The notes: generated by a model from the sequence alone, not told the origin. Positions 36,113 to 64,000 are shown, counted from the stretch's first letter. The stretch is 64,000 nt of DNA from Candidatus Borrarchaeum weybense (GCA_019057385.1 JAHQJS010000006.1:581038-645037); one strand, 5' to 3'. Translations and numbers: made by a program.

Positions 36113-37241
36113 TACTTAGGTACTCAGGAACGGCTAATAAAACTTATATAGAAGTTCCTAAGCATACATTCTGCTCAAAAAACAAAATAGGAAAAAGAGG
36201 AAAAGGTTTCCATTTTGCGCTGGTGCCTTTCCCTCTTTGAAGGTAATCCCTATGGATTCTATTAGGAACTTTTCCGATAAAAAGTTTTCGCTCGCGGTTC
36301 ACGAAATTCTTTTGCAGTTGAAGTATAATTCGTATCCACACAATTATCTTGTTGCGAAAATTCAGGAAAGTCATGCTACTTTTTCAAGATCTCTTGTTGA
36401 AAAAGTGATACATTTTCTCTATTATAACGCGAAAAAATTAGGCAGAATTGTCATAGACTTTGAAGGGAAGGCTCTTCATTTCTATTACAATCTTGACATT
36501 TCTGAGGAAATTGCATTTCAGCGTGCAAAGAGTTTCATGGCAAATTACAGACTCTATCTTAAAAAGATGATTACGAATGACAAAAAGACAAATATTGTTG
36601 GCAGGATGGGTGAAGGAGCTGTAAGAGCTGTCTTACGGAAATTAGGTTTCACAGTCCTGCAACGAGTCAGAGCAGGGAAAGGTGATATTGACCTTATTGC
36701 AATGATTAAAAGTTTCAATTGGCGTATTTGCAAAGTAAAAGAATTCGTAATTGCTTTTGAAGTGAAGAATAGAGACAAAGAAGTAGAGTCATCTTGTCTT
36801 ACTAAATTTAATTATGCTTTAGATAAGTTTACTGCAAAAACAAACATCAAGATAGACCGAAAAATCTTAGTCGCCAAAAAATGTAGTTACAAGACGCAAA
36901 AGAGGAGTAATGGGGAGGGAATAGACATTGTTGAACTCATGCAAAAATATGTGCCGCATACTCCCTATGCAAAACCCTTTGGAAGCATATCAATCAAACA
37001 GTTTATGAGAAAAATTCTCAGGAAATTGATTAGTCTTTTTAGAGGTCTTACAGATCTCATCGAATATATTTATGCAAAAGGAATCATTTCAAACAGATTA
37101 GAACACTATAAGACTCTTCTTAATCAATTCGATTGGCTATTACTTGCTCAGTTTTTAAAAGATCATTCTCTATGTCCTGCAAAAATACGTGACTTCGTTT
37201 TAAAAATGAGGTTATCCGACTTGTTCCTGAGTACCTAAGTA
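36113..37241. repeat. Perfect 19-bp inverted repeats flanking the nuclease gene
   Basis: TACTTAGGTACTCAGGAAC (36113-36131) and GTTCCTGAGTACCTAAGTA (37223-37241). Confidence 0.9.
36237..37238 (+). CDS. PD-(D/E)xK restriction-endonuclease-like (Mrr-cat-like) nuclease
   Basis: GRMGEGAV..GDIDLIA..AFEVKN. Confidence 0.75.
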   Translation: MKVIPMDSIRNFSDKKFSLAVHEILLQLKYNSYPHNYLVAKIQESHATFSRSLVEKVIHFLYYNAKKLGRIVIDFEGKALHFYYNLDISEEIAFQRAKSFMANYRLYLKKMITNDKKTNIVGRMGEGAVRAVLRKLGFTVLQRVRAGKGDIDLIAMIKSFNWRICKVKEFVIAFEVKNRDKEVESSCLTKFNYALDKFTAKTNIKIDRKILVAKKCSYKTQKRSNGEGIDIVELMQKYVPHTPYAKPFGSISIKQFMRKILRKLISLFRGLTDLIEYIYAKGIISNRLEHYKTLLNQFDWLLLAQFLKDHSLCPAKIRDFVLKMRLSDLFLST

Positions 37242-37366
37242 CTTTCGTAGTGATCATAAGAAAAAACTATCACAAACTCATTACCTAAGTACTGAGGAAT
37301 ACATACCTTTATATAAGACTAAATCCCCATTTACCAATGTAAAAACTTGTGTGGTGGGATGACAAA

Positions 37367-37525
37367 GTGGGTGCCCTCAAATGTCCACGTTGCAATACGC
37401 AACTTTTCAAACAAAATGCTATTTATAGATGTCCTTGTTGTGGCTTTTGGGCTACGCATGAAGCACTTATAGCATCCCAAACCTCTTCTACTTTTATAAA
37501 AAATACCATAAAAGCAGTAGCATAA
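37367..37525 (+). CDS. 52-aa Zn-ribbon microprotein (not in ORF track)
   Basis: MGALKCPRCNTQLFKQNAIYRCPCCGFW..; GGTGG SD before GTG. Confidence 0.6.
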   Translation: MGALKCPRCNTQLFKQNAIYRCPCCGFWATHEALIASQTSSTFIKNTIKAVA

Positions 37526-37534
37526 AAAAAAAGA

Positions 37535-37867
37535 TTATTTGAAAAGTTGAATAAGTGCAACGAATCTCTCTGTGACGTCTTTTCCTAATTTTGTAATAGT
37601 GTATTCCTCAAGGTTACGAGATTCATCGTAAACCTTTGCTTCTAAAACACCAAGTTCTACTAGAGAATCAATTCTACTACGAATTGTATTATAACTAAAT
37701 TTTCCAAATTCATTCTTAAACTCATGTAAAAGATCTGTGGTTCGCCAAGTCGTTTTCTTTTGAAACATCAAGAGCACTTCAACACTCTTTGATTTCTCGA
37801 AAGCATCTAACATTTGCATTGTTTTTTTGTTTTTGAGATCTGAAATGACTGACAATATCAACACCAA
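37535..37867 (-). CDS. Winged-helix regulator (HxlR/PadR-like)
   Basis: SYNTIRSRIDSLVELGVL..EYTITKLG. Confidence 0.8.
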   Translation of the reverse strand: MVLILSVISDLKNKKTMQMLDAFEKSKSVEVLLMFQKKTTWRTTDLLHEFKNEFGKFSYNTIRSRIDSLVELGVLEAKVYDESRNLEEYTITKLGKDVTERFVALIQLFK

Positions 37868-37925
37868 CCAAAGTACCTAAGTAATAAGATATGATTTCCT
37901 CATACTAAAAACTACTTCATAAATC

Positions 37926-37981
37926 TTGTTATGACAGTTGTGATAACAAAATAAAGGTTTGGTCCTAAATTGTAATAACAA
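37926..37981 (-). promoter_or_regulatory. Operator array A: three TTGTnATnACAA palindromes
   Basis: Boxes at 37926, 37938 and 37970, upstream of the wHTH gene. Confidence 0.75.
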
Positions 37982-37998
37982 CTTTATTCCTGGAATAC

Positions 37999-39285
37999 TT
38001 ACAGAAAATAAAGGTAGGCGAAGAATAATAGCCCTATTGTCGGTAAAATAAGAATAAATAGATTCATCGCTATTTTAATTATAGGCATTTTTTTGTAGAG
38101 TTGATAGATTGTAACAAAACATAGTAATACAATATTTAGAAGAGCACCAATTTTGAGGACCTGAACAAGCCGGGTGTGTGGAAGAAGTACTTTTGATTCA
38201 AATTTTTCTTTGAGGAACTGATAGGAGTTCCCTGATAACCTCTCAAAATTATAGATACTTACTCCATCGGCACTTAATCGAATGCTTTCAAGTTTTTGTT
38301 TCATTATGTTAATATCTTCAGGAATTATCGGCAAATATGTCGCCGAACGTAAGTCTATATTTCTTAGATAAGTGATAGTTTCTTGAAACGTCTTGAGATC
38401 GCCGTATTCCATCACCTTGTAAAAGTCCACAAAATTGTCCCATGAATCCCATTCCTGGAAGATTCCATATCCATCTGATCCATGGATACTTGGCCGCGTA
38501 AACACATTACATCCGATATATTTGAATTTGCTGTGGACTATTTTTGAAGCCTCTTTAACAAAGGTGGTGATGGTCTCAGTCATAAAGGTTTCCCATTTAG
38601 CCCACATTTGTGTATCTGCTTCATCAAAATCTAAAGGACTAACGCTGTAAGTTTCGGTGAATTTTTCTAAACTGTATGGATCATAGGACGGTTTATCTAA
38701 ATATCTGACGAAATCTAATATAATCCCGTCCACGCCTTTTGCAAGTATTTCTTCAATGATCGAAAAATAGAACTCACGGACTTCTGGAATCGCGGGTGAG
38801 AACCAATACTTGATCCACGAAGCTTGAGGAGTCACAGGATTGCCTTGTCTGTCCACTGCCCACCACTCACTATGGTTCTCACTACCCGTTCGTGAAGAAT
38901 AATCAATCCACAGGTCTACAATTGCATAGACTTTGAGTCCCTTTTCCTTTCCCTTTTGAATAAAATATTCCAGCACGTCAAAGTCATACGTAAAATCAGT
39001 GATAGAAATTTGACCTTGTGAAACTTCGCTGGGATAATACGTCAGAGATCCACCAACCGCTAAAGAAATTATGTTTGCGCCAAGTTGGTCAATTTGCCTA
39101 ATCTTGGCATCAATTTCTTCTTGAGTTTTATACTGACCGCTATCAAGTTTGATAGTAACGATTCTGCCTTCCTCATATTTGTTCTCTGCCGTTGTGATAT
39201 TGAAAGCAATTTGTATGAAAGCAGAACTGCAAATGATTACGAGCAATACTATGAATGCAATTCTCAAGTCGTCAGGTTTTGCCAT
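37999..39285 (-). CDS. Membrane-anchored GHL10/DUF187-like glycoside hydrolase
   Basis: GLKVYA, WFSPAIPEVREF and GVDGIILDFVRY; N-terminal TM and two C-terminal TMs; start set at ATG 39285. Confidence 0.8.
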   Translation of the reverse strand: MAKPDDLRIAFIVLLVIICSSAFIQIAFNITTAENKYEEGRIVTIKLDSGQYKTQEEIDAKIRQIDQLGANIISLAVGGSLTYYPSEVSQGQISITDFTYDFDVLEYFIQKGKEKGLKVYAIVDLWIDYSSRTGSENHSEWWAVDRQGNPVTPQASWIKYWFSPAIPEVREFYFSIIEEILAKGVDGIILDFVRYLDKPSYDPYSLEKFTETYSVSPLDFDEADTQMWAKWETFMTETITTFVKEASKIVHSKFKYIGCNVFTRPSIHGSDGYGIFQEWDSWDNFVDFYKVMEYGDLKTFQETITYLRNIDLRSATYLPIIPEDINIMKQKLESIRLSADGVSIYNFERLSGNSYQFLKEKFESKVLLPHTRLVQVLKIGALLNIVLLCFVTIYQLYKKMPIIKIAMNLFILILPTIGLLFFAYLYFL

Positions 39286-39394
39286 TATTTTTTTCCTCTT
39301 CTTTTTTTTCAATTTCCTGTCTGATAACTTCTAAAACAGAACCACACAAGAAAAGTCCTCCTGATTATACTTAGGTAATGAAAAAAATAATTGA

Positions 39395-39640
39395 CTAGAG
39401 TTCAACAGGCAGTCGACTAACAATGTCCGCAATTGCTTTGGTATTCTTCTGTATGCTAGTTAACGTATGTTTCATCTTTGCTTCATGTTGTCCTATCTTA
39501 GAACACGCTTCTTTGTCGCCATGTACCTTGCATAAATGAACAACTTCCCTGAGTTCAGTTTGATTCTCAGCATACTCTTCTAAGTCTGCAACAAGAAACA
39601 AAATCCAACTATCGAGATTCAAAGGCATTGTTTCATGCAC
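39395..39640 (-). CDS. Hypothetical helical protein
   Basis: 81-aa ORF within the minus-strand gene run. Confidence 0.55.
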   Translation of the reverse strand: MHETMPLNLDSWILFLVADLEEYAENQTELREVVHLCKVHGDKEACSKIGQHEAKMKHTLTSIQKNTKAIADIVSRLPVEL

Positions 39641-39697
39641 ACTCCTTCTTCTTTTCTTTTTGATTATTTAAGTAGTCTAAAAGGCGACTTCTACTCA

Positions 39698-40378
39698 TTA
39701 TTTGGAGAACGATTTTTCATAATAGCTCTTCTTCCTTTTCTTGTGAATCAACGGGATCATAAGAATAAGTACAGTAATGATTACGCCGATCATAAGAATA
39801 AGTAGTTCATAACCACCGATGTAAAAGTATACATACCAAGACTCAGGATCCCAGAGTGAACTTCCCTCTTTTACTTGCGTCACAACTATTCTTTGGAAAT
39901 AACTCTCTTCTACTGTTGTCACGTAACTAATCGAATCGTGGATTCGTTGAAGCCTGAGATGGTTATTTGTATCTGAGAAATCCCATCGAATTATGTACAG
40001 ATTGATTTCAATGTAATTGAAAATGATTTCAACAGTCAGTACTACATGATGTCTCTGGTCGCCATTGAACTCATCTATGTCATATACAAGTTTTTGTGAA
40101 GTAGAAGTTACTTGAAACAAGTCAACTTTTTCTGAATTAAAGTCGAGCGTGTGTTGTTTTAAGCCGTTAGAATTGAACTCTTGAATGGCAACGTATTCGA
40201 GGTCATGTTTATTATTGATATTTTTGTACCAATAACGGAAGTGTACTTTATCGTTTCGGTAACTAAGACATATCTCCTCATTACTGATAGTATCAGTCGC
40301 GGCGACTGTTGGTTGAACAAGAACACCGACTAAGACAAGTGCTACAATTAGCGCACACATTGCTTGTTTATGATTCAT
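39698..40378 (-). CDS. Secreted beta-rich protein with C-terminal TM anchor (putative surface/virion protein)
   Basis: Signal peptide MNHKQAMCAL..PTVAA; C-terminal TM followed by KKRKK. Confidence 0.7.
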   Translation of the reverse strand: MNHKQAMCALIVALVLVGVLVQPTVAATDTISNEEICLSYRNDKVHFRYWYKNINNKHDLEYVAIQEFNSNGLKQHTLDFNSEKVDLFQVTSTSQKLVYDIDEFNGDQRHHVVLTVEIIFNYIEINLYIIRWDFSDTNNHLRLQRIHDSISYVTTVEESYFQRIVVTQVKEGSSLWDPESWYVYFYIGGYELLILMIGVIITVLILMIPLIHKKRKKSYYEKSFSK

Positions 40379-40385
40379 TTTTTTC

Positions 40386-40688
40386 TTACTTCCCAATAAT
40401 TCTTTTAATGGTCGGAAAACCAAGTAGCGCAATACTTAGAAGTAAGCATAATGCCGCAACGACTAAGATTGCAATGTAAGGAAACCCTAGATACAATAGA
40501 TTTCCAACGATATTTTCTGAAGATGTAGTAAAGTATTGAAGAACATAGTCTTTAGCCTTAGTGACCCACAAATTAGCACCAACTGCATTAGCGATCCAAC
40601 CTCCAAGTGACCAGATCATACCTGATGCGATGAATAAAAACGCAACACCAACGAGATACCGCAATTTAGAAACTACCTTTTTGACCAT
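40386..40688 (-). CDS. 100-aa two-hydrophobic-helix protein, candidate virion coat protein
   Basis: Basic N-terminus, two long hydrophobic helices, basic C-terminus KRIIGK. Confidence 0.65.
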   Translation of the reverse strand: MVKKVVSKLRYLVGVAFLFIASGMIWSLGGWIANAVGANLWVTKAKDYVLQYFTTSSENIVGNLLYLGFPYIAILVVAALCLLLSIALLGFPTIKRIIGK

Positions 40689-40803
40689 TTTTCCTTTCAC
40701 CTTTTCTAATTACTTAGGTACTTTCGTAATATCTGTCACGCCAGGAATTGACGCAACACACGATTTATGAAAGCATTTGGGGATTTAGGCGGTGCAAATC
40801 TAT

Positions 40804-41550
40804 TCAGGGGGACATCAGCGCAAACATTTTCGAGAGTATATTATTTAATCTATGAACCCAGATTGACGCATAGAGTCCATACTTTGTTCTGATCGCAGCA
40901 AGTTCTATTCCTGCTACAACTGTAAACATGAGTAAAATTGCATTGAAGGCGTACGCTACACTATGCGCAATTCCAAAGAATAGTGTCGATGAAATCACGT
41001 ACGCAATCGCATACGCCGTTGTTTCATCAAACTTAAGAAATCGTTGCAGAACCCACTTGATAGGCTCAGGGTACGCATACCTGAAAAAAAGTTCTTCAGT
41101 CGGAGCGATCAAACAAACATGGAACATTATACTGACAAAAAACCCTTCAATTGGAGATAAGGTTTGCGTGCTTTCTAATAACAAGATTTCTGACGTTGGG
41201 GATACAGAAATCCCATAAAGCGGGCTTTCTGTGTCTACTATTGACAGACCAAGAGTGTTTTGAAAAGGTGCGAGCACATAACTAAAGATCACGTTCGTAA
41301 ATATCACAATAGTGACGCCTAAAGTAATACCCACGATAAAATTGGCTTTCTTTTCTCGCACACTTTTGTAAGAATAAAATGCATATACTGCGGCAACCGC
41401 TGAAAAGATAATCGCATAACTATAAAAAAGAAAAATTTGGAGATAGGTTAAGACGGCGAAACCAATTGTAAACATCAGTATCCCCATAGCGATAACGTAA
41501 TCTGCCGCACTGATTACAATATCTTCAGTAATAGCCTCTCTAGTTATCAA
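40804..41550 (-). CDS. CPBP-family (type II CAAX/Abi) intramembrane glutamic protease
   Basis: PTEELFFR (EExxxR), FFGIAH (FxxxH) and WVHRLNN (HxxxN). Confidence 0.88.
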   Translation of the reverse strand: MITREAITEDIVISAADYVIAMGILMFTIGFAVLTYLQIFLFYSYAIIFSAVAAVYAFYSYKSVREKKANFIVGITLGVTIVIFTNVIFSYVLAPFQNTLGLSIVDTESPLYGISVSPTSEILLLESTQTLSPIEGFFVSIMFHVCLIAPTEELFFRYAYPEPIKWVLQRFLKFDETTAYAIAYVISSTLFFGIAHSVAYAFNAILLMFTVVAGIELAAIRTKYGLYASIWVHRLNNILSKMFALMSP

Positions 41551-44500
41551 CGAAATCTCCTCCTGTCACCTTTGAAGTACCTAAGCAGTATGATTCCAAA
41601 GATTACGATGAATGTAAAGAACCCATAGACACCGAATTGAGTGAGCATTTGTACTTCTACTGGTGCCTCTGCTACATTTAAAGCACCGATAGATCCTGCA
41701 ACAGCAATCAATAGCGAGAATAGACCCCCACCTGAAATAAGTCCGATGTGCCATTGGAAGTTGTGCTTCCTGTAAGACTCATAAACAGGACCCGCCTTAG
41801 CGACATGACTCCACAGGATCACAACAATTGCAACTGTGATTGGGACAAACGCAAATACAGGACTTGCTAAGTTAATTGCTGGTTTTCTAAATGTTACAGA
41901 CCATTCAGATATGTCGGTAAGTGACAAAACTCCTCCAAGTTGAGGTAAAAACAAGAATATAGCAAGTGTTACTCCAGCTGCACCGAAGATCGCTGTGTAA
42001 ACATAGAACGCATATTTCTGATAAAATTTCTTAACACGCGATACGTCTTTCGTACTTTGAACTACAACTATGCCTATTATTGAAATACTTAAAGCGTAGA
42101 TAAAAGGCTCTATTGTAAGCGTGTAAGTCTTTTCTTTGACATATCCCACAAGATACAGTGTTTGATCGGGTTCTATATTGATGCCATAAATGCTAATTGT
42201 TCCTTCGTAATCATTAGGCATAAATTCAACTGAATATCCGCTTTCTTCATTACTTAAGTAGTCTAAAAGAGTTGCACTTGCAGCAGAGGATATTTCGTTC
42301 TGTAATTTGCTGTCAGTGTATATTTTCCATGATTTTATGCTGTCTGTAGTGTAACCCGCCCAATATAGTTTTCGTATTGAAGGCAGGTCGATTCCAATAA
42401 TAGAGACATTCTCTCGTGCTATTTGAGTGTCTATATTCATCGTATAGACAGCTTTGTTATTATCAGCGTTTACCACAGCGGGACTAGAAACCTTTGGTTC
42501 AGTTTCATAGAAATAGATTTTGAAGGAAGCGTCTTCGGTAGGTGCTTCATCAAATTCAAGTGTGAGTTTCCACTTAGATCCTTCTGCTTTAAACTTTAAG
42601 TTAGTCACATTCTTTGTGCTTACAGCAACAGCAGTAACTAAGTCAAAGTCGTCACCTAGTTTTTCCTTGAATGAATTGCTTAACGTCTTGGTATAGACCA
42701 ATTGTGATTCGTGAATCGTTGCAGTGCACCAAAACATAAGATCTTCTGTGACGTTTCCACACTTTACTTCTTCAGGTTCGTGAAGTGAACCTAATTGAAG
42801 TCCATTCTCAGGGGTAGAATCTGCGAAGAATGTTATTGTTTCTTTTTCTGTGAGCCCATTAGTATTTTCTGCTCTGATCTGTAGTTTATAATCATCATCT
42901 TCATCAAAAAACGTGCTGTTTACCTCAAAAGAGCCCTCATAAACTCCTGTAGTAGTATTTCCTGATTCTAGGCTCATAGTTTGCCAGGCAGAATAAACCT
43001 CGTATTGCGTAATTTGTGATTCATAAGTGTATCTAAATTTCACTGAGGAGATAGTAGCAGCTTCTGATGATAATTGAGTAGCAGTACATTTTACTGTTAC
43101 AGTTTCAAAGTCTACTCTCTCGTTATGTGAGGGATCTACATTAGTAATAGAAACACCCTGATCGCATAGCCAATTACTAAAACTTAGAGTAGTGTTATGC
43201 CCTTCAAAATCCTCAGAAATAATAAAATCTAAGTCAGTATCACTACCTAAATTTACCTCAGAAATCTCCCAATGATCTGTATCCCATGTTGCCGTGAAAG
43301 AATCTCCATCTGTGGCAGATATATCTCCTGAATCAATGCCTGTAGTGTATGAAGGTGTGATAGTACCAGATTGTAAGTTTTCTGATGCTACCGCAAAAGT
43401 TCTTGAACTATCAAAGTAAATATTGTCAATGTATGCCTTTAAATTGATCTGTGAGGAATTATAATAGAATCCAATGTAATCAATATCATTCCAATTAGGA
43501 GAGCCCTGCTCACTCCATCCTGAACTACCAGAGCCTAACTCTATAGTTTCTACCTGCCATGTATTAGGAGTAGTTATGTCTACTGTTCGATAAAAATAAT
43601 TAGAATCACTATCATAAAGTCTTAACTCCAGAAATGAATGAGATTTAAGTTTAACAATATGTGCATCAGCATAATCAACATTATTTATCGGAAAATATAT
43701 ATAATCATCCGTTGGCTGAATAAACGAACTTGTTGGGCAACCTTCACCTGATCCGTATGTTACAAGATCTGTAAAGGTATCCTCTTTTATGTCATAATAT
43801 CCCACTCCACCAACGTACCAACCGTAGTATATAATATTGTTATCGTCATCGTAATATACACTTTCAAGTGTATAGGGATCTGAATAACCAATATAACCAA
43901 GATCATTAGTTGAATCCGTTGTTACGTTTAACTGATAAAGGTGCCCTGTAATTGATCTTCCAAAAAGAATTAAATCAGTACCATTCATTGTAGGACTAAG
44001 AGCTGTATCGCCAAGCGAACTAACTACTGTCTGTTCGTGTGACGTGAGATTCATTTTTTGAATCCCAACAGAGGCACCGCCAATATAAAGAAAATCTCCA
44101 ACATTAACTAAAGTTTGTGGGTCCTCATCGTTAGTGCCAACGGTAGAATACCACTCTTCTGCCCATTCATCAGTTTGAGCGTCAAAAGTTTTCCAACCCA
44201 TTTTAGCAGCTTCTCTCCAAAACGAGTAAAAAATATGTGATCCATTATACCAACAAGAAGATACTGCCCAAGTTGATGAAGTAAAAATGTCACCAACCAA
44301 TTCTATTGTACCATCAGAGATATCTAATTTACAAACTTGATGAGAAAAAGTTGGAGTGGTATTATAAGCTATAAAATAAATGAATTCATTATCAACATTT
44401 ATTAAACTTTGAATCGAGTCATAATGTGTTTCAAGTTCAGAGGGCAAAGTAACCTCAGTAACGGTATCTGTAGAGATGTTTAATTTGAATAGATTACAAA

Positions 44501-45194
44501 CATCTGTTAGTTCTCTATCTCCAAAATAAACAGAACCATCTCCATCATAAGCCATTCCTGTAAAGGAAGCATCTGATACTGATTTTGTGCCCGTCATAAT
44601 ACCAATATCTTCTATCTCAAAATAATAGCCTCCACTTTGATAGACTGCAAAGTTGAGATATTCATAGTAATTCTCACAATCTAATGAAAGGTTTTTAGAA
44701 GCATTATAATAAGCCACTCGATTATCTTCACCTGCTGTAGCAGTTGCATTAATCGAATAACTGCCTGTGTATTTTATATCTCCTTCATCAGATAACGTGA
44801 AATTATCACTTCCCCATGAACTTGCAGTATTTTCAGTCCACGAATCACCGCCTTCAGGAATTGCATAATAGTTGAGATCAGAAGGAGGATCACCGCCACC
44901 GCCATCGCCATTAGACAGAGTACCGATAGTAGGACCACTTGTTTTTTTTTCGTCTGGGATTTCAGGAGATTCTATATGTATATCTGGTTCTTTGGTATTA
45001 TGAAGTGTGGCCTGTGATGAGTCTGATATTTTCATAGCCACTTGTATGGCGAAAAGACACAGGCAAAAGATGATAAGCACTGATGTAATGTGACGGGCTT
45101 TAGGTCTGGGAACTAACCCTTTTATGATTTCTTTGGCTACTAATGGAACTAATTGTGTTTTCTTACGTTTAATCGGTTTACGTTTTATCCTCAT
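41547..45194 (-). CDS. 1215-aa membrane-anchored adhesin/spike-like protein
   Basis: N-terminal TM; acidic S/T/D/Y-rich beta domains including propeller-like repeats; ~5 C-terminal TMs. Confidence 0.75.
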   Translation of the reverse strand: MRIKRKPIKRKKTQLVPLVAKEIIKGLVPRPKARHITSVLIIFCLCLFAIQVAMKISDSSQATLHNTKEPDIHIESPEIPDEKKTSGPTIGTLSNGDGGGGDPPSDLNYYAIPEGGDSWTENTASSWGSDNFTLSDEGDIKYTGSYSINATATAGEDNRVAYYNASKNLSLDCENYYEYLNFAVYQSGGYYFEIEDIGIMTGTKSVSDASFTGMAYDGDGSVYFGDRELTDVCNLFKLNISTDTVTEVTLPSELETHYDSIQSLINVDNEFIYFIAYNTTPTFSHQVCKLDISDGTIELVGDIFTSSTWAVSSCWYNGSHIFYSFWREAAKMGWKTFDAQTDEWAEEWYSTVGTNDEDPQTLVNVGDFLYIGGASVGIQKMNLTSHEQTVVSSLGDTALSPTMNGTDLILFGRSITGHLYQLNVTTDSTNDLGYIGYSDPYTLESVYYDDDNNIIYYGWYVGGVGYYDIKEDTFTDLVTYGSGEGCPTSSFIQPTDDYIYFPINNVDYADAHIVKLKSHSFLELRLYDSDSNYFYRTVDITTPNTWQVETIELGSGSSGWSEQGSPNWNDIDYIGFYYNSSQINLKAYIDNIYFDSSRTFAVASENLQSGTITPSYTTGIDSGDISATDGDSFTATWDTDHWEISEVNLGSDTDLDFIISEDFEGHNTTLSFSNWLCDQGVSITNVDPSHNERVDFETVTVKCTATQLSSEAATISSVKFRYTYESQITQYEVYSAWQTMSLESGNTTTGVYEGSFEVNSTFFDEDDDYKLQIRAENTNGLTEKETITFFADSTPENGLQLGSLHEPEEVKCGNVTEDLMFWCTATIHESQLVYTKTLSNSFKEKLGDDFDLVTAVAVSTKNVTNLKFKAEGSKWKLTLEFDEAPTEDASFKIYFYETEPKVSSPAVVNADNNKAVYTMNIDTQIARENVSIIGIDLPSIRKLYWAGYTTDSIKSWKIYTDSKLQNEISSAASATLLDYLSNEESGYSVEFMPNDYEGTISIYGINIEPDQTLYLVGYVKEKTYTLTIEPFIYALSISIIGIVVVQSTKDVSRVKKFYQKYAFYVYTAIFGAAGVTLAIFLFLPQLGGVLSLTDISEWSVTFRKPAINLASPVFAFVPITVAIVVILWSHVAKAGPVYESYRKHNFQWHIGLISGGGLFSLLIAVAGSIGALNVAEAPVEVQMLTQFGVYGFFTFIVIFGIILLRYFKGDRRRFR

Positions 45195-45227
45195 CTACCT
45201 ACCTCACGATAACTGTCAATAGTTAAA

Positions 45228-45887: not shown

Positions 45888-45945
45888 TTTTCTCCATTTT
45901 TTCTGTTTCTAATTACTTAGGTAGTTTGGATCAATGAGGCACAAT

Positions 45946-47187: not shown

Positions 47188-47216
47188 AGATTATAAGCCC
47201 CCACTATCACTATTGG

Positions 47217-53302: not shown

Positions 53303-55045
53303 ATGACTGAAGCAATAGAAGAAGCCACAAATCCTGAAAAGGAATGGCTAAAAACTTTAGTTCGAGCGGATTTTGAAAAAACTAAAGAGGATGAAGAACT
53401 TAAACTAAAACCCATAACCTCAGGGATACAATCACTAATCCTTGAATTCTACCAGCGGTTATCCTCGACAGATACACCAGACGAATTCGATCAGTTTTAC
53501 AGTGAAAGACTGAAACAGTATAAAGCAATGCATTTGTTCATCAGTTTCCTTAATGAATATGCGGTTAAATTGGGGTTATCTCCCCGACCAACGGCACCAG
53601 AGTTTTACAGGAATTCACAAGAAGTAGAAAAGTATCTCTTTGAGATTACTGAAGCTACTCTCGGAGAACCACAGACACTTAAAACCTTGCAAGATCAGAT
53701 CAGTGCAAAATATCCCGATCTACTCAGTCAAATCATTAAAAATGAAATTGACAAAACGAACGGGAAATATGAAGATTTTGTCAACAACGAAATGACAGAG
53801 ATTGAGGAGAAAATTGATTTAGGGGTCGAAATAGAACTTGATCCCGTCATCAGTAAACAATTGCAATTAATCGAGGAATCTAAGGGAAAAATTCAGCAAA
53901 TTTCAGCAGAATTAAACAAGATGATTATTCTCGGTGAAACGGTATGGGAATATCTCATCTATGCAATGGTGAGCCCGCACTGCCCACCCTTTTACATCAA
54001 TGGTCTTAAAAAACGTGCTAATTTGCACGTACTTCTGGTGGGCGATATTTCTACAGCAAAGTCAGAAATCATCGACGTTACTGATGAAATAGCCTTTAAG
54101 AGTTTTAAAATAGACGATAGCACACGCGCCGCTATGGAAGGAAAATATACTACTGAAGGAATCGAAGCTGGGGTTATCGACCATGCTAACAATGGCTTGC
54201 TCTGTATTCACGAATTCGATAAAGCCTTGAAGGAGTTTAAATTACTCCGAAGGTGTCTCGATTGCAGAGATTTTACAATTGCGAAAGGCGAGCACATGAA
54301 AATCACTAACATCAACATGACACTTTTCTGTGGAGCCAACCCAACCGATGATTTTTTCCATAAAGAATGTTATCGGGATCAGATCCCCTTTTCAGAGGGG
54401 CTTCTGAGCAGGTTTGATATAACATTGCCCCTCCAATCTACCCCACTACGTAATAACCTCATGCTTGATCGTTTAGACCTCTTTTCCGAAGATAAAATCG
54501 TTGATATTACAAAAACCAAAGAAATCTTAGCAACTTTAATTCATGGCATACAGAAACTCAAAGGCGTTAAAATCGAACAAGAACACCAAAAAATGATAAA
54601 AGAAGTCTTTCGTCTGTATAACATTCGTTTACCACGCCGCCCCTTTGTAATCCTTCGAGACCTCGAAACCATTGCCCGATTTGTCAATGTAATAGCGTCT
54701 GCCAACTTTTATAATAGACAGGTAAAAGACGGCTACGTGTATGCTATAAAAGAGGACATTGAGAAAGCAATTTCCCTATGGGAGGACTTAATGCACCGCC
54801 GCCGACAACTGTACGAAGAAACAGGCGCAAAGAAAGAATTGACAAGCATTGATGACATAATCAAGAAAGAAATCATCATGCACGGTAAAGACCACATTAA
54901 AAGTACGGATCTTTATGAGATAATCGTGGAAAAACTCCATATATGTCACAAAGCGACCTTCTATAGAGCACTAAATCGCATGGAAGCGCAGGGAAAAATA
55001 CAACGTAAAGGCAGGAAAAACGCAACAATCATCCTCAACTCCTAA
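53303..55045 (+). CDS. Divergent MCM-family helicase with non-canonical N-terminus and C-terminal wHTH
   Basis: HVLLVGDISTAKS, EAGVIDHANNGLLCIHEFDK, GANP, LLSRFD and RDLE. Confidence 0.85.
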   Translation: MTEAIEEATNPEKEWLKTLVRADFEKTKEDEELKLKPITSGIQSLILEFYQRLSSTDTPDEFDQFYSERLKQYKAMHLFISFLNEYAVKLGLSPRPTAPEFYRNSQEVEKYLFEITEATLGEPQTLKTLQDQISAKYPDLLSQIIKNEIDKTNGKYEDFVNNEMTEIEEKIDLGVEIELDPVISKQLQLIEESKGKIQQISAELNKMIILGETVWEYLIYAMVSPHCPPFYINGLKKRANLHVLLVGDISTAKSEIIDVTDEIAFKSFKIDDSTRAAMEGKYTTEGIEAGVIDHANNGLLCIHEFDKALKEFKLLRRCLDCRDFTIAKGEHMKITNINMTLFCGANPTDDFFHKECYRDQIPFSEGLLSRFDITLPLQSTPLRNNLMLDRLDLFSEDKIVDITKTKEILATLIHGIQKLKGVKIEQEHQKMIKEVFRLYNIRLPRRPFVILRDLETIARFVNVIASANFYNRQVKDGYVYAIKEDIEKAISLWEDLMHRRRQLYEETGAKKELTSIDDIIKKEIIMHGKDHIKSTDLYEIIVEKLHICHKATFYRALNRMEAQGKIQRKGRKNATIILNS

Positions 55046-56776: not shown

Positions 56777-56869
56777 ACGAGACTACTTAGGTAATTAGGT
56801 ACTTAGGTAATTCCAAACATCTCCTATTTTTTTATGTGTGGAGCTTCAAAAGGCTCTGGAGTGAACAAT

Positions 56870-57814
56870 ATGGTACAAATCAAATTTGATAGTGCAAAAC
56901 TTTGGTCTTCTCTTGTGAAGGGTGTAAATGCTCTCATAAAAGAAGCCGAATTTGAGACCACTAAAGAAGGACTACATCTTCGAGCAATTGATGACGCGCA
57001 CATTGCCATGATCGACTTGGACATACCAAGCGATTCTATGAAAGAATACTCTTTTACTCTTCATGACAAAGAGGCAGACTTCGCGAAATTCGGCATAAAT
57101 ATTACTGAAATGGCTACAATAATGCGACGTATCCCCATTGGAGAAAAATTGACGCTGACATTGGATTCACAAAAAAGCAAATTTCATGTCGTAGCAGACT
57201 CTTTATACACAAAACGACGATTTTCAATTCCTCTCCTAGGTTCAACTTCCGCTGAAGACATTCCTGTACCGAAGATAGACTTTACAACAAAAATCAAACT
57301 TAAAGCAAAGTACCTCAAAGAGGCAATTAAAGACGCCGCTGTGATGGGTGACTATTTAAAACTCAAGACGACTGCCGATAAATTTTCTTTATGGGCAGAA
57401 GGCGATACAGGAAACGTCAGCATAGACTATGAATATGGAGAATCAATCTCTCTTGAGAAACGCGGTGACGCTGTTGGAATTTATGCTTTAAAGTACTTAG
57501 ACGATATGACCGATCCTATCCCTGGCGAATCTGAGGTAAGTATTGAGTTCTCAAATGATATGCCTCTGAAACTTACGTGGATGTTAAACGGCTCAAAACT
57601 AGATTACTACTTAGCTCCACGTATTCCACCCTCGGATGAAGAACCACCAAAAAAAGAGGAAAAGGAACAAGAAAAAACTAAGGATGACACAGAAGAGGAA
57701 AAAGAAACGCACGAAGAAACTAAGGAATTCCCTTGTGACGAGTGCGGAAAGACCTTTACTAGCCAAAGAGGACTTAACACACACATGCGCGTACATAAAG
57801 ACTCTGATGAATAG
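56870..57814 (+). CDS. pcn: PCNA sliding clamp fused to an acidic linker and a classical C2H2 zinc finger
   Basis: LRAIDDAHIAMIDL, YALKYL, EFSNDMPLKL and YYLAPRI; tail FPCDECGKTFTSQRGLNTHMRVH. Confidence 0.9.
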   Translation: MVQIKFDSAKLWSSLVKGVNALIKEAEFETTKEGLHLRAIDDAHIAMIDLDIPSDSMKEYSFTLHDKEADFAKFGINITEMATIMRRIPIGEKLTLTLDSQKSKFHVVADSLYTKRRFSIPLLGSTSAEDIPVPKIDFTTKIKLKAKYLKEAIKDAAVMGDYLKLKTTADKFSLWAEGDTGNVSIDYEYGESISLEKRGDAVGIYALKYLDDMTDPIPGESEVSIEFSNDMPLKLTWMLNGSKLDYYLAPRIPPSDEEPPKKEEKEQEKTKDDTEEEKETHEETKEFPCDECGKTFTSQRGLNTHMRVHKDSDE

Positions 57815-58377: not shown

Positions 58378-58622
58378 TGAGACACACACGAAATACATCT
58401 ACAAGGTCGCACCCTTGCTGACCTATTATGTCTCAGAAAAGGAAGGGTCTCCTGCCGCGGGAGTTTGAAACGTCACTCACTTCCCTCCGTGAGTAAGCGG
58501 GCGTGGTCACGACTCGAAATGTGGGTAAAAGTCGTGTAGTGAAGTCAGTGAAACAGAAAACTCATAAAAAGAAAAAACCCTCCTGAGGTAGAAGAACGGG
58601 GGTTCGATTCCCCCAAGCTCCT
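58378..58622 (+). ncRNA. Structured ncRNA ending in a tRNA/tmRNA-like acceptor plus T-arm domain
   Basis: GGAGTTT(58460)/AAGCTCC(58615) 7-bp stem; GGGGG-TTCGATT-CCCCC T-arm (58598-58614); internal hairpins; no long ORF. Confidence 0.65.
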
Positions 58623-58748
58623 CCCTCAAAAATTAAAGACTAGCGTAGCCGCATAGTCATATAGTCGCAAATATTATTTATACGTGGAGCTTAATAAATT
58701 TAATGGAACGGGAGTTTTTACTTCAGAACTACTTAGGTAGTGCGAAAT

Positions 58749-59690
58749 ATGTCCTTAGTGCACTTTTTGCAGAAAAACCCTGACTACCTCTCAGGTGTCA
58801 GAAGAATCCTCGAATATGAAGAGGACCATAAAGACGATCAGTATTTCAAGGACTTAGGGTGGTCTTGGGATGATATTAGACTTTCAGGACCACACTTGAA
58901 TCAGTTAGTTTTGGCGGGAATAATTCAAATTGTGTATAAATCCCGCAAGAATCGCGGCTATTTGTTAGTAGATCGAGAAAAAACAAAGAAAGAGATCGAA
59001 CTATACGAAGCACAATTAAATTATAGTCCAGAGACAGACGAAGAGATTGAATTCTCAGAATCTATCTTTGATGACATTATAGGCTATAACGATGTGAAAA
59101 AACTCTTTAAACGGGCGTTGCGGAGTGAAGAACCGATACATATCCTCATGATTGGACCACCCGCCAGCGCAAAGAGTATGTTTCTTTTTTGTCTTGCACG
59201 TTTAGATGGGGCTCATTATTCTCTTGGCTCATCGAGTACCAAAAGCGGATTATCTGATTTTCTTATTGAGTATTCTCCGCGCATATTATTGATCGACGAG
59301 TTGGACAAAATGAACACACCTGACTACTCCGTACTGCTCTCCTTATGTGAGAGTGGACTTGTGGGAGAAACAAAATACAAGAGAGTACGAAGTGTTCAGT
59401 TGAAATGTTCTGTATTCGCGGCTGCCAATGATGACAAAAAAATTCCGCGAGAAGTTAAAAGTCGATTTATTGCACTTCGATTTAAGGAGTATTCAAAAGC
59501 AGATTTTATAGAAACTGCCGTAAAACTTCTTATGCGGGAAGGAAAAGACCATGACTTAGCCACCTATATCGCTGAAAAAGTATGGCACTTTAAAAACCGC
59601 GATATAAGAGACTGCATACAGATAAGCCGCTTAGGAGATACACAAGAAGAGATCGACTCAACCCTGAAAACACTTCAGAAGTATTCGTGA
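58749..59690 (+). CDS. wHTH plus AAA+ ATPase (MCM/RuvB-like, typical of archaeal integrative elements)
   Basis: HILMIGPPASAKS, LIDELDK, AAAN, SRF and DIRD. Confidence 0.85.
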   Translation: MSLVHFLQKNPDYLSGVRRILEYEEDHKDDQYFKDLGWSWDDIRLSGPHLNQLVLAGIIQIVYKSRKNRGYLLVDREKTKKEIELYEAQLNYSPETDEEIEFSESIFDDIIGYNDVKKLFKRALRSEEPIHILMIGPPASAKSMFLFCLARLDGAHYSLGSSSTKSGLSDFLIEYSPRILLIDELDKMNTPDYSVLLSLCESGLVGETKYKRVRSVQLKCSVFAAANDDKKIPREVKSRFIALRFKEYSKADFIETAVKLLMREGKDHDLATYIAEKVWHFKNRDIRDCIQISRLGDTQEEIDSTLKTLQKYS

Positions 59691-59742: not shown

Positions 59743-61461
59743 ATGAAGGCTCTACCACAAACAGGAGGAATTCAAATTTCGTGGATACATGAATTTTTTG
59801 AGAAATATCGTGCCCAAATAACACCCCTCAGTATCACACATTTCAATATCGAGGATTTCCCGCAACTTTTTACTGCAAAAGTAAATGGGAAAACTCTTCC
59901 TGGATATTTTGAATTCGTAATTGAGTATGATATTGGATCGGGGTTATGTCCTTTTGAACCACAAAAAACAGACTCTGAACAACTTACAACAGATGAAGAC
60001 AGCTCTGAACAAATTACAATGACCGACAAACTACGTCAAGAATATGCGAAGTTTATACAGTCAGACGAAGTTTATGAACTACCTGTTGATCCCGTAGAAA
60101 CGCTGAACTTTATCCGCTATTTATTCCGCGAATATAAGGGGCTTTTTGTTCTTTATGATTGCGAAACAATAGCACCTGACAGTTCGGCGGCACACATGAC
60201 GCTACAGGATCGTCAATGTTCGCAACTACTTAAAAATTTAGCATTAGACCACAAAATTCGCAAAAAAGGAAGCGCAATCATAGTGACTGCCGAGAGGCTT
60301 GAGGATATTGCCCAAAAAGTCCGAAAGGTAGCTAATATCATTGAAATTCCGCTTCCTGACGATACATCACGAAAGAAAGTGTTTGAACAAGCAACTGAAA
60401 AAGTCGCTTATAATCCTAAGGACTTGGATCAATGGGTAGTCGGATCGAAAGGTTTGACAATCAAAGAACTTAAGTCGATCATAGTTGAACTTTATCAGAA
60501 AGACACCACAATTATGTTAGGTGACTTCTATGATCAAAAAGCGAAAAAGTTAGAGAAGTACGACATGGTCTCTTTAGAGAATCCAAAGTTCGGATTCGAG
60601 GGCTTAGTTCTACCAGACTACTTAAGTACTTTCCTTAAGACCTTCATAATAAAGCCATATCAACAAGCTATGCAAATTCGTCCAAAAGGGATCTTGTTCA
60701 CAGGACCACCAGGCACAGGGAAATCAGTGTTGGCGGAAGTAATAGCCTACGAACTTAACAGACCGTTGATTACCGTTGACGCAAGTAATTTACTCTCTCA
60801 ATATGTCGGGGAGAGTGAGAAACGGACTGCTCAATTTTTCCGAGTAATCAGACAATTTGGTGAGGCAGTTGTCCTTATTGATGAAGCCGAAGAATTACTC
60901 AGCGAGCGATCTACAGCAGTCAACACTGATAGCGGTGTGACATCCAATTTGAAGGCAACCTTTCTTCATGAAATGGCGAGAGATCATGGAGTATTGTTTA
61001 TACTCAATACTAATTATCCAATGAAACTCGATGCTGCCATGGTTCGTGTGGGCAGAATTAATTACAAAATACCACTTTTGCCACCATTTACCGCTGAAGA
61101 ACGGGCTAAAATACTTCGTGTGGTGTTAGATGTTCAATTAAAAGTCCCATACGATAAGAACATAGATTTTGAAGCAATTGCCGCAACACTTCAGGGATAC
61201 ACAGGCGCAGAATTACGAGAATTAGCAAGTGTAGCATGGGCTATTGCTTGTGTTGAAAATGACAAAGAAAAAACCGAGCAGGAAGATTTTGATGTCGCAA
61301 AAACGGTGTTTCTACCCGATACGCGAAAGATCAAAGAAATGACCGCCGACGCACTTTCAGTAGTGAATGACAAAAGGCTTTTGCCGCCACAACTCCACAA
61401 AGAAAAAGAAAAGAAGGTTCAAGAGTTTCAAGAAGGCACTTGGGATTCACTCTTTCAATAA
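59743..61461 (+). CDS. Ycf46-like AAA+ ATPase (degenerate N-terminal AAA plus active C-terminal AAA)
   Basis: PKGILFTGPPGTGKS, YVGESE, IDEAE, LDAAMVRVGRI and GYTGAEL; true start may be ATT 59776. Confidence 0.85.
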   Translation: MKALPQTGGIQISWIHEFFEKYRAQITPLSITHFNIEDFPQLFTAKVNGKTLPGYFEFVIEYDIGSGLCPFEPQKTDSEQLTTDEDSSEQITMTDKLRQEYAKFIQSDEVYELPVDPVETLNFIRYLFREYKGLFVLYDCETIAPDSSAAHMTLQDRQCSQLLKNLALDHKIRKKGSAIIVTAERLEDIAQKVRKVANIIEIPLPDDTSRKKVFEQATEKVAYNPKDLDQWVVGSKGLTIKELKSIIVELYQKDTTIMLGDFYDQKAKKLEKYDMVSLENPKFGFEGLVLPDYLSTFLKTFIIKPYQQAMQIRPKGILFTGPPGTGKSVLAEVIAYELNRPLITVDASNLLSQYVGESEKRTAQFFRVIRQFGEAVVLIDEAEELLSERSTAVNTDSGVTSNLKATFLHEMARDHGVLFILNTNYPMKLDAAMVRVGRINYKIPLLPPFTAEERAKILRVVLDVQLKVPYDKNIDFEAIAATLQGYTGAELRELASVAWAIACVENDKEKTEQEDFDVAKTVFLPDTRKIKEMTADALSVVNDKRLLPPQLHKEKEKKVQEFQEGTWDSLFQ

Positions 61462-62059: not shown

Positions 62060-62262
62060 CACAAGAAGAGCAGATCTTCTTCAAAATCGACAAAAAGACA
62101 GGTAACTTGACAATCGAAGGCAAAGGATTCGAAGGACCGATCTGTGAAGACGTTTTAAAGTCATTTGAAGAGTTAGGAGAGATAACACATGACAAAAGAA
62201 CACCAGAGTACTATAAAAAACCTCGACAAGTCCAAACAACCCGCCAACGACTTAGACATTAA
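62056..62262 (+). CDS. DUF2997 protein
   Basis: FKIDKKTG..IEGKGFEGPIC..ELG..TPEYY. Confidence 0.8.
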   Translation: MTQEEQIFFKIDKKTGNLTIEGKGFEGPICEDVLKSFEELGEITHDKRTPEYYKKPRQVQTTRQRLRH

Positions 62263-62448
62263 AATAAAAACAATAATTCGCATTGAGGACGATGGAACAG
62301 TCATTTTTTGCGATATTCCAACTGAGTTAATCCCTTTAGCCTTAGCATTGCGGGGCGATTAATTTCTCTTTTTTTTCTTATTATTTAGGTAATTCGTTAG
62401 GATGGAGCTTCTTCGTTGAGAGGCTACCAACTTCAGGAGAAAACCAAG

Positions 62449-63591
62449 ATGTCAGATACGAAAAACATTTCCATTTCTGTTAATGAAATGGATGTTCTTC
62501 TGAATGGTCAACGAATAGATCTTCATATCTCGTCAGGAGATATGTTTAGTCAATCTAAGTTGAATAAATTGCTCTACAAAGGATATAAAAGGCTTTCATC
62601 AACAATGGTGAAAACTTATACAAACGGCGATACTCTCACGCTTGATTCAATCAAGACAAAAGCACATGAACTAAGGCAGAAATACTGTTTCAGGTTATTT
62701 GAAAACAGCGTTGAAGACAACAGAGGGGCTGTATATTTTTGTCCCGAGTCTCTGACCGAAAAGTTGCGCAAAGACCTACGGGAACTCAAAAAGGAATATA
62801 AAAAGACACTTGAGTTTATTGGCAAAATCAGAGATACTTTGAATGAAGAAATCTTTAGTTTTTACAGTGAGCATTGTATTTATTGCGGGCGACCTGTGAA
62901 AGAAGAAAAGGCGGGAAAGATCATAAAATTGCGATGCACAGGCGATGATTCGCATATATTCACTAAAAAACTCATGGATCATTGGTTAGAACAAAATAAG
63001 TCGGTGATAGAAGTACCCTCGTTAGAGGAGATTAAAGCGCGAAAGAGATTTTATTATCGCTTCAGCAAATATTTTTTCCCCACTGAAGAACTCACTGACA
63101 ACTTAGTTGATACACAACTTAAACAGCAAAAGCAAAAAATGTATCAGGCAGAATTATCTACATGCAAGTCTGCAATAAAAAAACAGTTATGGCAAAAGAT
63201 GAAGTTAATCCTTGAATACATAGATGATCGGCTTTCAAAAAGAGAAAAACTTCGTGCAGACCAACTTGATAAAATCAAGAATGATTTAGATGCATTAGAA
63301 GAACTAAATAAAAGCACCTTCAAAATTCCTCAGATTTCTAATTCTATAGACAATCTCAATGCACAGATTGCAGACAAAGAAGCTGCACTGAAAGTTTTGA
63401 CAAACATCTCGAAGAACATCGAAAAGAAAATCAAAGAAGCTGAAGAAAATGAAAATATTGCGATGGATCTAATAGACAAATTAGAGGACATCGACATAGA
63501 AATTGGTACAGAAACGCTTGAACTAGAACAAAAAGAAGCAGTTGAAATTGAACTTGGTGACCAGAAAGAAGAGATTTTTTCTACAAATTAG
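62449..63591 (+). CDS. DUF3150-like coiled-coil protein with inserted Zn ribbon
   Basis: RGAVYFCPE motif, CIYC..C..H insert, position after DUF1257/DUF2997. Confidence 0.55.
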   Translation: MSDTKNISISVNEMDVLLNGQRIDLHISSGDMFSQSKLNKLLYKGYKRLSSTMVKTYTNGDTLTLDSIKTKAHELRQKYCFRLFENSVEDNRGAVYFCPESLTEKLRKDLRELKKEYKKTLEFIGKIRDTLNEEIFSFYSEHCIYCGRPVKEEKAGKIIKLRCTGDDSHIFTKKLMDHWLEQNKSVIEVPSLEEIKARKRFYYRFSKYFFPTEELTDNLVDTQLKQQKQKMYQAELSTCKSAIKKQLWQKMKLILEYIDDRLSKREKLRADQLDKIKNDLDALEELNKSTFKIPQISNSIDNLNAQIADKEAALKVLTNISKNIEKKIKEAEENENIAMDLIDKLEDIDIEIGTETLELEQKEAVEIELGDQKEEIFSTN

Positions 63592-63682
63592 TTTAAATCA
63601 AATCTTAGTACCTAGGTACTAAGAAATATTTTTCAATTTTTTATTTTTATGTGGGGCTTCATGGCTCAGGGGTGAACAAACT

Positions 63683-63880
63683 ATGCCTATAGATTCATGG
63701 CAAGAGTTCATTGAAACGATCAAAGGGCTTCTAATTGGTTGCGGTATAGATATTATTATTGTGTCTTTCTATATTCCAGAAGTCCGCAATGATCTCAATT
63801 ATTGGGTTCTCACACCAATACTCATCATCTTAGACTTTCTTGTGCGCTTTGTGAGAACCTTTTTTATTTTTTTATTATGA
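63683..63880 (+). CDS. Small 2-TM protein
   Basis: 65 aa; conserved leader GGGGCTTCATGGCTCAGGGGTGA. Confidence 0.6.
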   Translation: MPIDSWQEFIETIKGLLIGCGIDIIIVSFYIPEVRNDLNYWVLTPILIILDFLVRFVRTFFIFLL

Positions 63881-64000
63881 GGGGCTTCTTCTCCAGGAAG
63901 AACGCTACCAACTTTTTGTGAGGGATTAATATAAGACAACGAAAAAAGATTCAACTTCTGAGGGTCTCTCCAGTCACACGAATGAGACTTGTCAAAAAGT

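Follow-up and report, generated by a model that had tools for sequence, protein, structure and literature searches.

We analysed a 64,000-nucleotide stretch of DNA, hereafter the window, from Candidatus Borrarchaeum weybense (GCA_019057385.1 JAHQJS010000006.1:581038-645037, also referred to as G000:C6:581038-645037). Borrarchaeum is a genus of the Asgard lineage, and the source genome comprises 4.18 Mb in 8 contigs with a GC content of 37% and an estimated completeness of 100%. From position 36045 onwards the window is occupied by an integrated element of 59,501 bp, which runs 31.5 kb past the window end. Positions beyond 64000 are given as window-equivalents, L001 and L002 corresponding to window 63001-83000 and 83001-103000, respectively. 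A preliminary description of the window had recognized a provirus-like element between 36113 and 64000. The genes that it listed, a minus-strand arm of membrane proteins and a plus-strand arm with MCM, PCNA and AAA+ genes, are all present where it placed them. Its limits had to be revised: 36113 is only the first copy of a palindrome described below, the true left end being attL at 36045, and on the right the element continues beyond 64000 to window-equivalent 95557 (L002:12557).

Host genes of the source genome share 97-98% DNA identity with contigs of GCA_019058535.1 ('Candidatus Borrarchaeum sp.' at NCBI), which we call the conspecific. The congener, or sister species, used for comparison of the insertion site is G004, whose ilvC gene is 94% identical. 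Four congeners, 69-100% complete, were searched.

The element is bounded by a 12-bp direct repeat with the core AAACTATATTTT, found at 36045-36056 (attL) and again at window-equivalent 95546-95557 (attR, L002:12546-12557). BLAST comparison of the two ends returned AT-rich chance matches, and the core was found via the sequences of relatives. The distance from ilvC to a radical-SAM gene is 2.5 kb in G004 as opposed to 61.6 kb in the source genome. The G004 interval contains an unoccupied attB (...GTAGATTGATTTGGTTTCTAATGTCGTG-AATCTATATTTT-CACGTAATTCG, core AATCTATATTTT), the left part of which is homologous to the source DNA left of attL and the right part to that right of attR. Contig JAHPYX010000257.1 of the conspecific matches window-equivalent 88309-95555 with 99.986% identity, and all similarity ends exactly past AAACTATATT. 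At the left end, host DNA passes into the element immediately ahead of the same 12-bp core in JAHPYX010000244.1 of the conspecific and in a Logan contig from a different sample. The right-hand break in the conspecific, the left-hand joins and the unoccupied attB of G004 identify the 12-bp repeat as the attachment core. The segment 36045-95557 is a single element, put in by site-specific recombination.

A 391-aa tyrosine integrase (minus strand, L002:11309-12484; PF00589, 8e-7; XerA-type NCBIfam, 5e-15) is encoded 62 nt inside attR, and host genes (the radical-SAM gene and SepSecS) restart directly after it. The preliminary description had pointed to the adjoining DNA as the place to look for an integrase and att sites, and there they were found. 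The integrase (P0026) has HAIR as its HxxR box and the C-terminal tyrosines, and carries 'TGMD' at the usual position of the box-I arginine; its C-terminal tail is long, Glu/Lys-rich and coiled-coil-like. ARAGORN and Rfam (gathering thresholds) detected no transfer RNA (tRNA) or other RNA family in the window and the next 20 kb, two candidate tRNA-like stretches at 52528-52600 and 58378-58622 included. The insertion thus does not interrupt any tRNA gene that could be detected, and the site is intergenic, downstream of ilvC.

The GC content of the element (36.9%) is that of the host, its coding density is 86% and no obviously broken genes were seen. Its tetranucleotide distance from the host is 3.6 standard deviations above that of random host segments. 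No part of it has a DNA match in the four congeners, save one small multi-copy open reading frame (ORF). Logan contigs of two sediment studies contain the element, and wherever they cover the flank the insertion site is the same. We regard it as nearly certain that this is an integrated, mobile element.

The membrane-protein arm

The leftward, minus-strand arm (37535-49298) measures 11.8 kb, a fifth of the element, and adjoins a central divergent control region. Nine membrane proteins, against the 'about 10' of the preliminary description, are encoded in one co-oriented block, together with four small soluble proteins; the membrane topology of the arm proteins was assigned by crude hydropathy counts. 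Pfam and PHROGs scans covered all ORFs of at least 250 aa in the window and the 31.5 kb beyond it, plus the arm ORFs. Apart from the regulator gene at the far end of the arm (see below), only two arm proteins, a GHL10-like and a CPBP-like protein, could be assigned to a family. Their genes are also the only ones in the arm with cellular homologues.

The arm contains the gene of a 1215-aa surface protein (41547-45194), with one N-terminal transmembrane segment or signal and five C-terminal transmembrane segments. The ectodomain is acidic, Ser/Thr-rich and has 17 N-glycosylation sequons. Among 5.8e9 proteins its single homologue is the copy in the conspecific. No match was obtained in 300 other Asgard genomes (including four congeners) or in Pfam, PHROGs, PDB sequences, the ESM Atlas and INPHARED (tblastn). 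Between the two copies, residues 523-1215 are 87% identical and residues 28-503 (43686-45113) 24% identical. This pattern indicates that one N-terminal head was replaced outright by another, the two copies of the element being nearly identical otherwise. Part of the head region (44008-44674) is without cover in Logan contigs of other samples. Residues ~205-530 comprise seven repeats of ~45 residues (x-N/D-G-x-hYF...K-h-D-h-x-T), with a pairwise mean 3.8 standard deviations over shuffles. An AlphaFold2 (AF2) model of the ectodomain had a predicted local distance difference test score (pLDDT) of 35.6, too weak for fold tests past the propeller signal: its sole Foldseek matches were beta-propellers (Kelch, WD40, TolB and designed; E ~2e-8). 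The head is thus probably a seven-bladed beta-propeller, as judged from the repeats and the model.

Five genes lie between the far end of the arm and the surface protein gene. The GHL10 glycoside-hydrolase-like protein (37999-39312; PF02638, 7e-14) has a signal and a C-terminal transmembrane segment; outside the species its nearest homologues are only ~30% identical. It is followed by an 81-aa soluble protein (39395-39640) without a Pfam or PHROGs family and by a type-I membrane protein (39698-40432) with a signal-like N-terminus, an ectodomain, a C-terminal transmembrane segment and a basic tail. The translated 104-aa protein encoded at 40386-40700 has two hydrophobic segments and weak PHROGs matches only (E >= 0.003). 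It is the only arm protein roughly of the shape of a spindle-virus capsid protein; no homology to these was detected. The fifth is a CPBP/Rce1-like intramembrane protease (40804-41550; PF02517, 1.6e-8), 99.6% identical in the conspecific.

Beyond the surface protein gene stand a 219-aa polytopic membrane protein (45228-45887), 86% identical to the conspecific copy at the nucleotide level, and a 413-aa membrane protein (45946-47187) with an acidic ectodomain and a Ser/Arg-rich tail. The latter matched only itself among 1.84e9 representative proteins, and no IMG/VR locus was found for it. Next are a 243-aa polytopic membrane protein (47217-47948), 100% identical in the conspecific, a 135-aa protein with 4-5 transmembrane segments (48013-48420) and a 72-aa soluble protein (48436-48654), which is called as a gene in the conspecific record. 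The head of the arm is formed by the genes of two small Trp/Lys-rich paralogues of 81 and 90 aa (48726-49298), 54-56% identical to each other. The AF2 model of these paralogues is all-helical (pLDDT 68.7) and gave no meaningful fold match; one idea is that they form a putative paired nucleocapsid.

Comparison with the conspecific copy gave an uneven picture. Over at least 5.1 kb (47217-52347) the two copies are 100% identical, whereas the flanking host genes differ by 2-3% (synonymous divergence, dS, 0.06-0.11). There are also arm genes that have diverged further than the host flanks, the GHL10 gene with a dS of 0.24 and the gene of the 219-aa protein with a dS of 0.45. These differences indicate that the element is mosaic relative to the conspecific copy and has recently moved or recombined. 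Where the copies of arm genes differ, the ratio of non-synonymous to synonymous divergence (dN/dS) is 0.15-0.27 (0.27 for the GHL10 protein, 0.17 for the type-I and the 219-aa proteins), and the arm genes are therefore taken to be kept by selection.

Hallmark genes of capsids, packaging and conjugation were not recognized. In the ORFs scanned across the 59.5 kb, all those of at least 250 aa and those of the arm, Pfam and PHROGs gave no match to terminase, portal, HK97 or double-jelly-roll (DJR) capsid proteins, FtsK/HerA or VirB4, which bears out the preliminary description and extends it beyond the window. Among the scanned ORFs there were no markers of tailed viruses (Caudoviricetes; verdandiviruses, Nidhogg- and Opia-like) and no VirB4/TraC, TraG/VirD4 ATPase or relaxase. 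The only P-loop proteins are an MCM, an RFC-like protein and a classical AAA ATPase; no DUF87, FtsK or A32-type match was obtained, and nothing places the element with the Varidnaviria (skuldviruses). Capsid proteins of spindle-shaped viruses (wyrdviruses, Halspiviridae, Fuselloviridae), such as His1 VP21 and SSV1 VP1, have about 80 aa and two hydrophobic segments. Small proteins of this shape are encoded at 40386-40700, 63683-63880 and L002:2536-2865; in PHROGs they did not match such capsid families, small size being a hindrance to detection by sequence. The arm proteins had no PHROGs match to the Pleolipoviridae core of a VP4-type spike, a VP3-type membrane protein and a VP8-type NTPase, the model of the largest protein being, as mentioned, poor.

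Replication genes, regulation and related elements

The rightward arm encodes an element-type MCM helicase (53303-55045, plus strand; PF00493, 3.5e-18), which has no similarity to any host gene at 1e-5. A sliding clamp follows, a fusion of PCNA and a C2H2 zinc finger (56834-57814, plus) with 46% identity to the host PCNA on contig C8. Further along are an RFC/clamp-loader-like AAA+ protein (58740-59690, plus; phrog_168, 3.6e-11, with a partial PF00493 match) and a classical AAA ATPase with a CDC48/CdvC/PAN-like core (59743-61461, plus; PF00004, 6e-29; NCBIfam; phrog_8638 over residues 105-513). The N-terminal 265 aa of the AAA ATPase are without a recognized family. Past the window end lie genes of a 603-aa topoisomerase-like protein (phrog_6247, 5e-7; the PDB sequence search gave no useful match) and, according to the family scans, of a spore-photoproduct-lyase-like radical-SAM protein and a PriS-like primase. 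With MCM, PCNA-zinc finger, RFC-like, AAA, topoisomerase-like and primase genes, the element holds what their predicted products indicate to be a replication set of its own.

Relatives of the MCM (31-41% identity) were found exclusively on unbinned metagenome contigs; a 13-sequence profile found none in GTDB species genomes, and there were none in IMG/VR. The replicons compared were L012 and L013 (JGI 3300031673 and 3300031539), Logan SRR14699983, L008 and L010. Several relatives, L012 and L013 among them, repeat the gene order of MCM, two or three small ORFs and PCNA, and an ASCH-domain ORF is shared as well. The common gene order and the ASCH ORF show that the rightward arm belongs to a recognizable family of mobile replicons. 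L008, L012 and L013 (not L010) differ in having a giant ORF and a DUF87/HerA ATPase beside the MCM, both absent from our element, and none of these relatives contains anything of the membrane arm. L008, L012 and L013 may represent mobile replicons of an Asgard-type family in which another module serves transfer or packaging.

The two arms appear to share regulatory sites. The element-specific palindrome TACYTARGTA, first seen at 36113-36122, has 48 copies genome-wide, and 40 of the 48 are inside the element (36113 to window-equivalent 94094), mostly 10-120 nt upstream of gene starts and in front of arm and replication genes alike. The presence of about 40 palindromes before genes points to control by an element-encoded DNA-binding protein. 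Three regulator-like genes were noted. An HxlR-type winged-helix regulator (37535-37867, minus; PF01638, 5e-5) is the last gene of the leftward arm. To the right of the divergent intergenic region (49299-49401), which was assigned by gene orientation, a 260-aa protein (49619-50401, plus) has a C-terminal winged-helix regulator-like domain (phrog_11046, 3e-4). A 162-aa protein (51732-52220, minus) shows a below-cut-off match to a regulator family of Sulfolobus pRN plasmids (PF05584, 2.6e-3).

By description, the element belongs with published 'enigmatic' Asgard mobile genetic elements, the closest described kind. These range from 44 to 85 kb and include 10H_0 (84.5 kb), Ga0114923_10000127 (58.8 kb, circular) and 7H_42; their nature was left open between virus and plasmid (10.1101/2021.07.29.453957). 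Host, size range, lack of a capsid protein, PCNA and a topoisomerase (Topo mini-A)-type protein are points of likeness, as are zinc-finger proteins, nucleases and methylases. The group is not defined by homology; of its traits the PCNA with a zinc finger is present here, and the topoisomerase-like protein is represented by the phrog_6247 match only. The published elements differ in being free, CRISPR-targeted and partly circular contigs, whereas ours sits in the chromosome between defined att sites, and no spacer was found to match it. They have a primase-SF3 helicase in place of an MCM and a PriS-like primase, and their TFB, Rad51 and HMG protein were not detected here.

Two other Asgard elements can be likened to this one by description. 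HeimV1 of Ca. Heimdallarchaeum endolithica (Wu et al. 2022) is a putative virus, integrated or circular, of 30 kb located next to tRNA-Gly, with a circular replicating state evidenced by PCR and a V-shaped coverage profile (PMC8813620). Like our element it can be integrated and carries an integrase; its arms are polycistronic, one of its proteins is large and fibre-like, and a clear capsid gene is missing. It differs in its tRNA-Gly site, size and demonstrated circle. The circular 20.8-kb plasmid of Atabeyarchaeia (Valentin-Alvarado et al. 2024) carries a tyrosine integrase and a mini-topoisomerase VI (PMC11529989). It resembles our element in lacking capsid genes and in its integrase, transmembrane proteins and CAAX-like protease; it differs in having one third of the size, a primase-helicase rather than MCM and PCNA, and a ParB-like NTPase, and it has been read as a plasmid.

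For a particle, the nearest working analogy would be the apHPVs/pR1SE, haloarchaeal plasmids in self-encoded vesicles that are restricted to Halobacteriales (PMC10818511). In apHPVs the largest vesicle protein combines a conserved C-terminus with an N-terminus that varies and is often of WD40 type; MCM is their commonest replication gene, and integrases and integration are usual (PMC10818511). The likeness is one of architecture, not homology: a variable N-terminus that is probably a propeller here, a core protease gene, MCM, integrase, defence cargo and a size of ~50 kb or more. The apHPV core consists of ORF6, 7 (S8 peptidase), 8, 17, 21, 23 and 24. Its protease is an S8 serine peptidase, whereas the arm encodes a CPBP protein, and no S8 peptidase domain was found in any scanned ORF.

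Nature of the element

We propose that the leftward arm could be a dissemination module. A resident repressor would silence both arms; upon induction the integrase would excise a 59.5-kb circle and the rightward arm would replicate the DNA. The nine membrane proteins and the two small helical proteins would make up or decorate a membrane-bound particle that has no capsid shell, of a pleomorphic-virus-like or plasmid-vesicle-like type. The 1215-aa protein would be anchored in the particle membrane by its C-terminal helices, its exchangeable propeller head recognizing the next host, and the membrane-anchored glycosidase-like protein might act on surface glycans. The leftward arm would thus supply both the exit from the cell and the entry into the next. 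Because no capsid shell, packaging ATPase or conjugation ATPase was found, a membrane-bound particle would be the simplest vehicle. A virus, a vesicle-borne plasmid and a plain integrative plasmid are not separable at present, and our slight preference for a membrane-bound particle is tentative, held with somewhat less than even confidence. It is possible, though somewhat doubtful, that we are dealing with a provirus from a new group, at family level, of enveloped Asgard viruses without a capsid, or with the Asgard counterpart of plasmid vesicles.

Several observations weigh against a particle. No structural protein of known viruses or plasmid vesicles was recognized by sequence or fold; of the preliminary description, the mobile integrated DNA of an Asgard host is borne out and the virus- or vesicle-borne nature is not. 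A pI/B251-like morphogenesis ATPase is also missing: neither the arm nor the DNA next to it encodes an ATPase, and the AAA ATPase at 59743-61461 is of the CDC48/PAN/CdvC class. Polytopic proteins with 5-6 transmembrane segments belong more typically to transport or secretion machinery than to virions, and a size of 59.5 kb far exceeds that of known pleomorphic or small spindle viruses. Neither a circular junction, nor a coverage excess, nor a spacer match, each named in the preliminary description as a possible check, was found. In Logan contigs the depth of the element is about that of the host flank, a contig-level and hence weak measure. A simple scan revealed one array of clustered regularly interspaced short palindromic repeats (CRISPR) at C4:148433-152129, with 49 repeats (core TTTCAATCCTTATTACTTAAGGAATTCTTTTGCAAC) and 48 spacers of 38-47 nt. 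None of the 48 matched the element, and none matched its own genome. When the DNA of the four congeners was searched with the whole element, a search not directed at CRISPR arrays as such, nothing spacer-like was matched either. Comparable Asgard elements were judged 'perhaps more likely plasmids' (10.1101/2021.07.29.453957), and the Atabeyarchaeia plasmid encodes seven transmembrane proteins, a CAAX-like protease and a putative conjugative or secretion-like system (PMC11529989).

An alternative that we consider possible, if rather doubtful, is an integrative plasmid-like element that forms no particle. The arm would then be a new contact, secretion or mating system in the donor envelope and the propeller protein an adhesin, with DNA passing by cell contact or fusion. 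MCM, integrase and restriction-modification genes are the usual make-up of cryptic integrated archaeal elements, and the abundance of polytopic proteins in the arm would fit. A similar gene set in Atabeyarchaeia was read in this way (PMC11529989), Medvedeva et al. leaned to plasmids for capsid-less Asgard elements (10.1101/2021.07.29.453957), and the giant ORF and DUF87/HerA ATPase lend the replicon relatives L008, L012 and L013 a conjugation-like look. However, our element lacks VirB4, TraG, a HerA or FtsK-type ATPase and a relaxase, and its arm has nothing in common with the modules of those relatives. It is unlikely that the arm is cargo unrelated to transfer, serving surface remodelling, immunity or the exclusion of other elements to the benefit of the lysogen or as a block on competitors. 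CPBP proteins are known as bacteriocin-immunity or Abi-type proteins, cellular homologues exist only for this and the GHL10 gene, and other defence-type cargo (restriction-modification, an Mrr-like nuclease) is aboard. Yet a fifth of the element, situated at the central divergent control region, under purifying selection and with the same operator sites as the replication genes, is involved, and at least ten co-oriented genes without a database match are many for one accessory trait.

Two further explanations deny mobility, now or altogether. A decayed, immobile remnant, or domesticated island, would account for the equal depth of element and host and for the 'TGMD' in the integrase. It would also fit the missing attP circular junction, looked for in the assembly, JGI metagenome contigs and IMG/VR (contigs, not raw reads); a 32-mer of the 100% conserved block is missing from the JGI contigs as well, so the element is probably absent from these contig collections altogether. 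Such a remnant is nevertheless quite improbable given the 86% coding density without obvious broken genes, the purifying selection, the intact att repeats and the 100% identical blocks common to hosts 2-3% apart; in addition, the right flank of the conspecific departs at precisely the core, implying that recombination took place there recently. The preliminary description had allowed for ordinary syntenic core genes of the lineage. The host-like GC content and the same genes at the same site in the conspecific would agree with this, but it is refuted by the unoccupied attB in the sister species, the lack of element DNA in the four congeners and the absence of the 1215-aa protein from 300 Asgard genomes.

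Several large capsid-less Asgard elements have already been published, and the present one adds a membrane module with no match in the databases searched. Its value lies in the exact ends, the empty site in a sister species and the 8-contig genome estimated to be complete, and comparison with the second, diverged copy tells the frozen parts from the exchanged ones. The case bears on whether membrane-only viruses or vesicle-borne plasmids exist in Asgard archaea. If the element represents a new group of capsid-less enveloped viruses, its particle would consist solely of membrane proteins unmatched in the databases searched, with a giant spike whose propeller head is exchanged between strains, and Borrarchaeia would have their first known virus-like agent; our literature search found no paper on a virus or integrated element of this lineage. 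If it is a plasmid, it would be an ordinary addition to the Asgard mobilome.

Other genes and flanking DNA

The remaining genes of the element are varied. A 333-aa protein with an Mrr-cat-like nuclease domain (36237-37238, plus; PF04471, 6e-5) is encoded near the left end and is also present in the conspecific copy. A 391-aa soluble protein (62416-63591, plus) has no match in Pfam, PHROGs or PDB sequences. Family scans beyond the window detected an ASCH protein, a HIT protein and a type I/IIG restriction-modification pair within the element. A 258-aa serine recombinase (L002:196-972, window-equivalent 83196-83972, minus) contains a resolvase domain and the start of a 'Recombinase' domain. It is short for the large type and may be truncated, or may be a resolvase or invertase. 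The small multi-copy gene mentioned above is a 94-aa ORF (L001:8792-9076, window-equivalent 71792-72076, minus) with five genomic paralogues, the best of which is 88% identical (C7:367888-368169); its DNA matches in congeners were the only ones for the element.

The DNA around the attachment site varies between genomes. Outside the element, between ilvC and attL, a 2-kb stretch with a GC content of 31% (33998-36016) is a separate indel, missing in the conspecific and in one contig from another sample, which have ~100-140 other bases instead. It contains a 313-aa ORF without a family (34203-35144) and a zinc-ribbon, TackOD1-like ORF (35104-35517). In G004 (C17; L004/L005) a gene for a 734-aa leucine-rich-repeat protein lies between attB and the radical-SAM gene, where the source genome has ~45 bp, so that the attachment site is variable even without the element. 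To the right of attR, the conspecific contig JAHPYX010000257.1 (L011) does not continue with the radical-SAM gene but with at least 6 kb of small ORFs, which have no Pfam match, no copy of the palindrome and no match in the source genome. This DNA could be a second, tandem element at the same att site or the result of a rearrangement. Just left of ilvC, two pairs of acetolactate synthase large and small subunit genes stand face to face, at 27557-29864 (plus) and 30274-32525 (minus).

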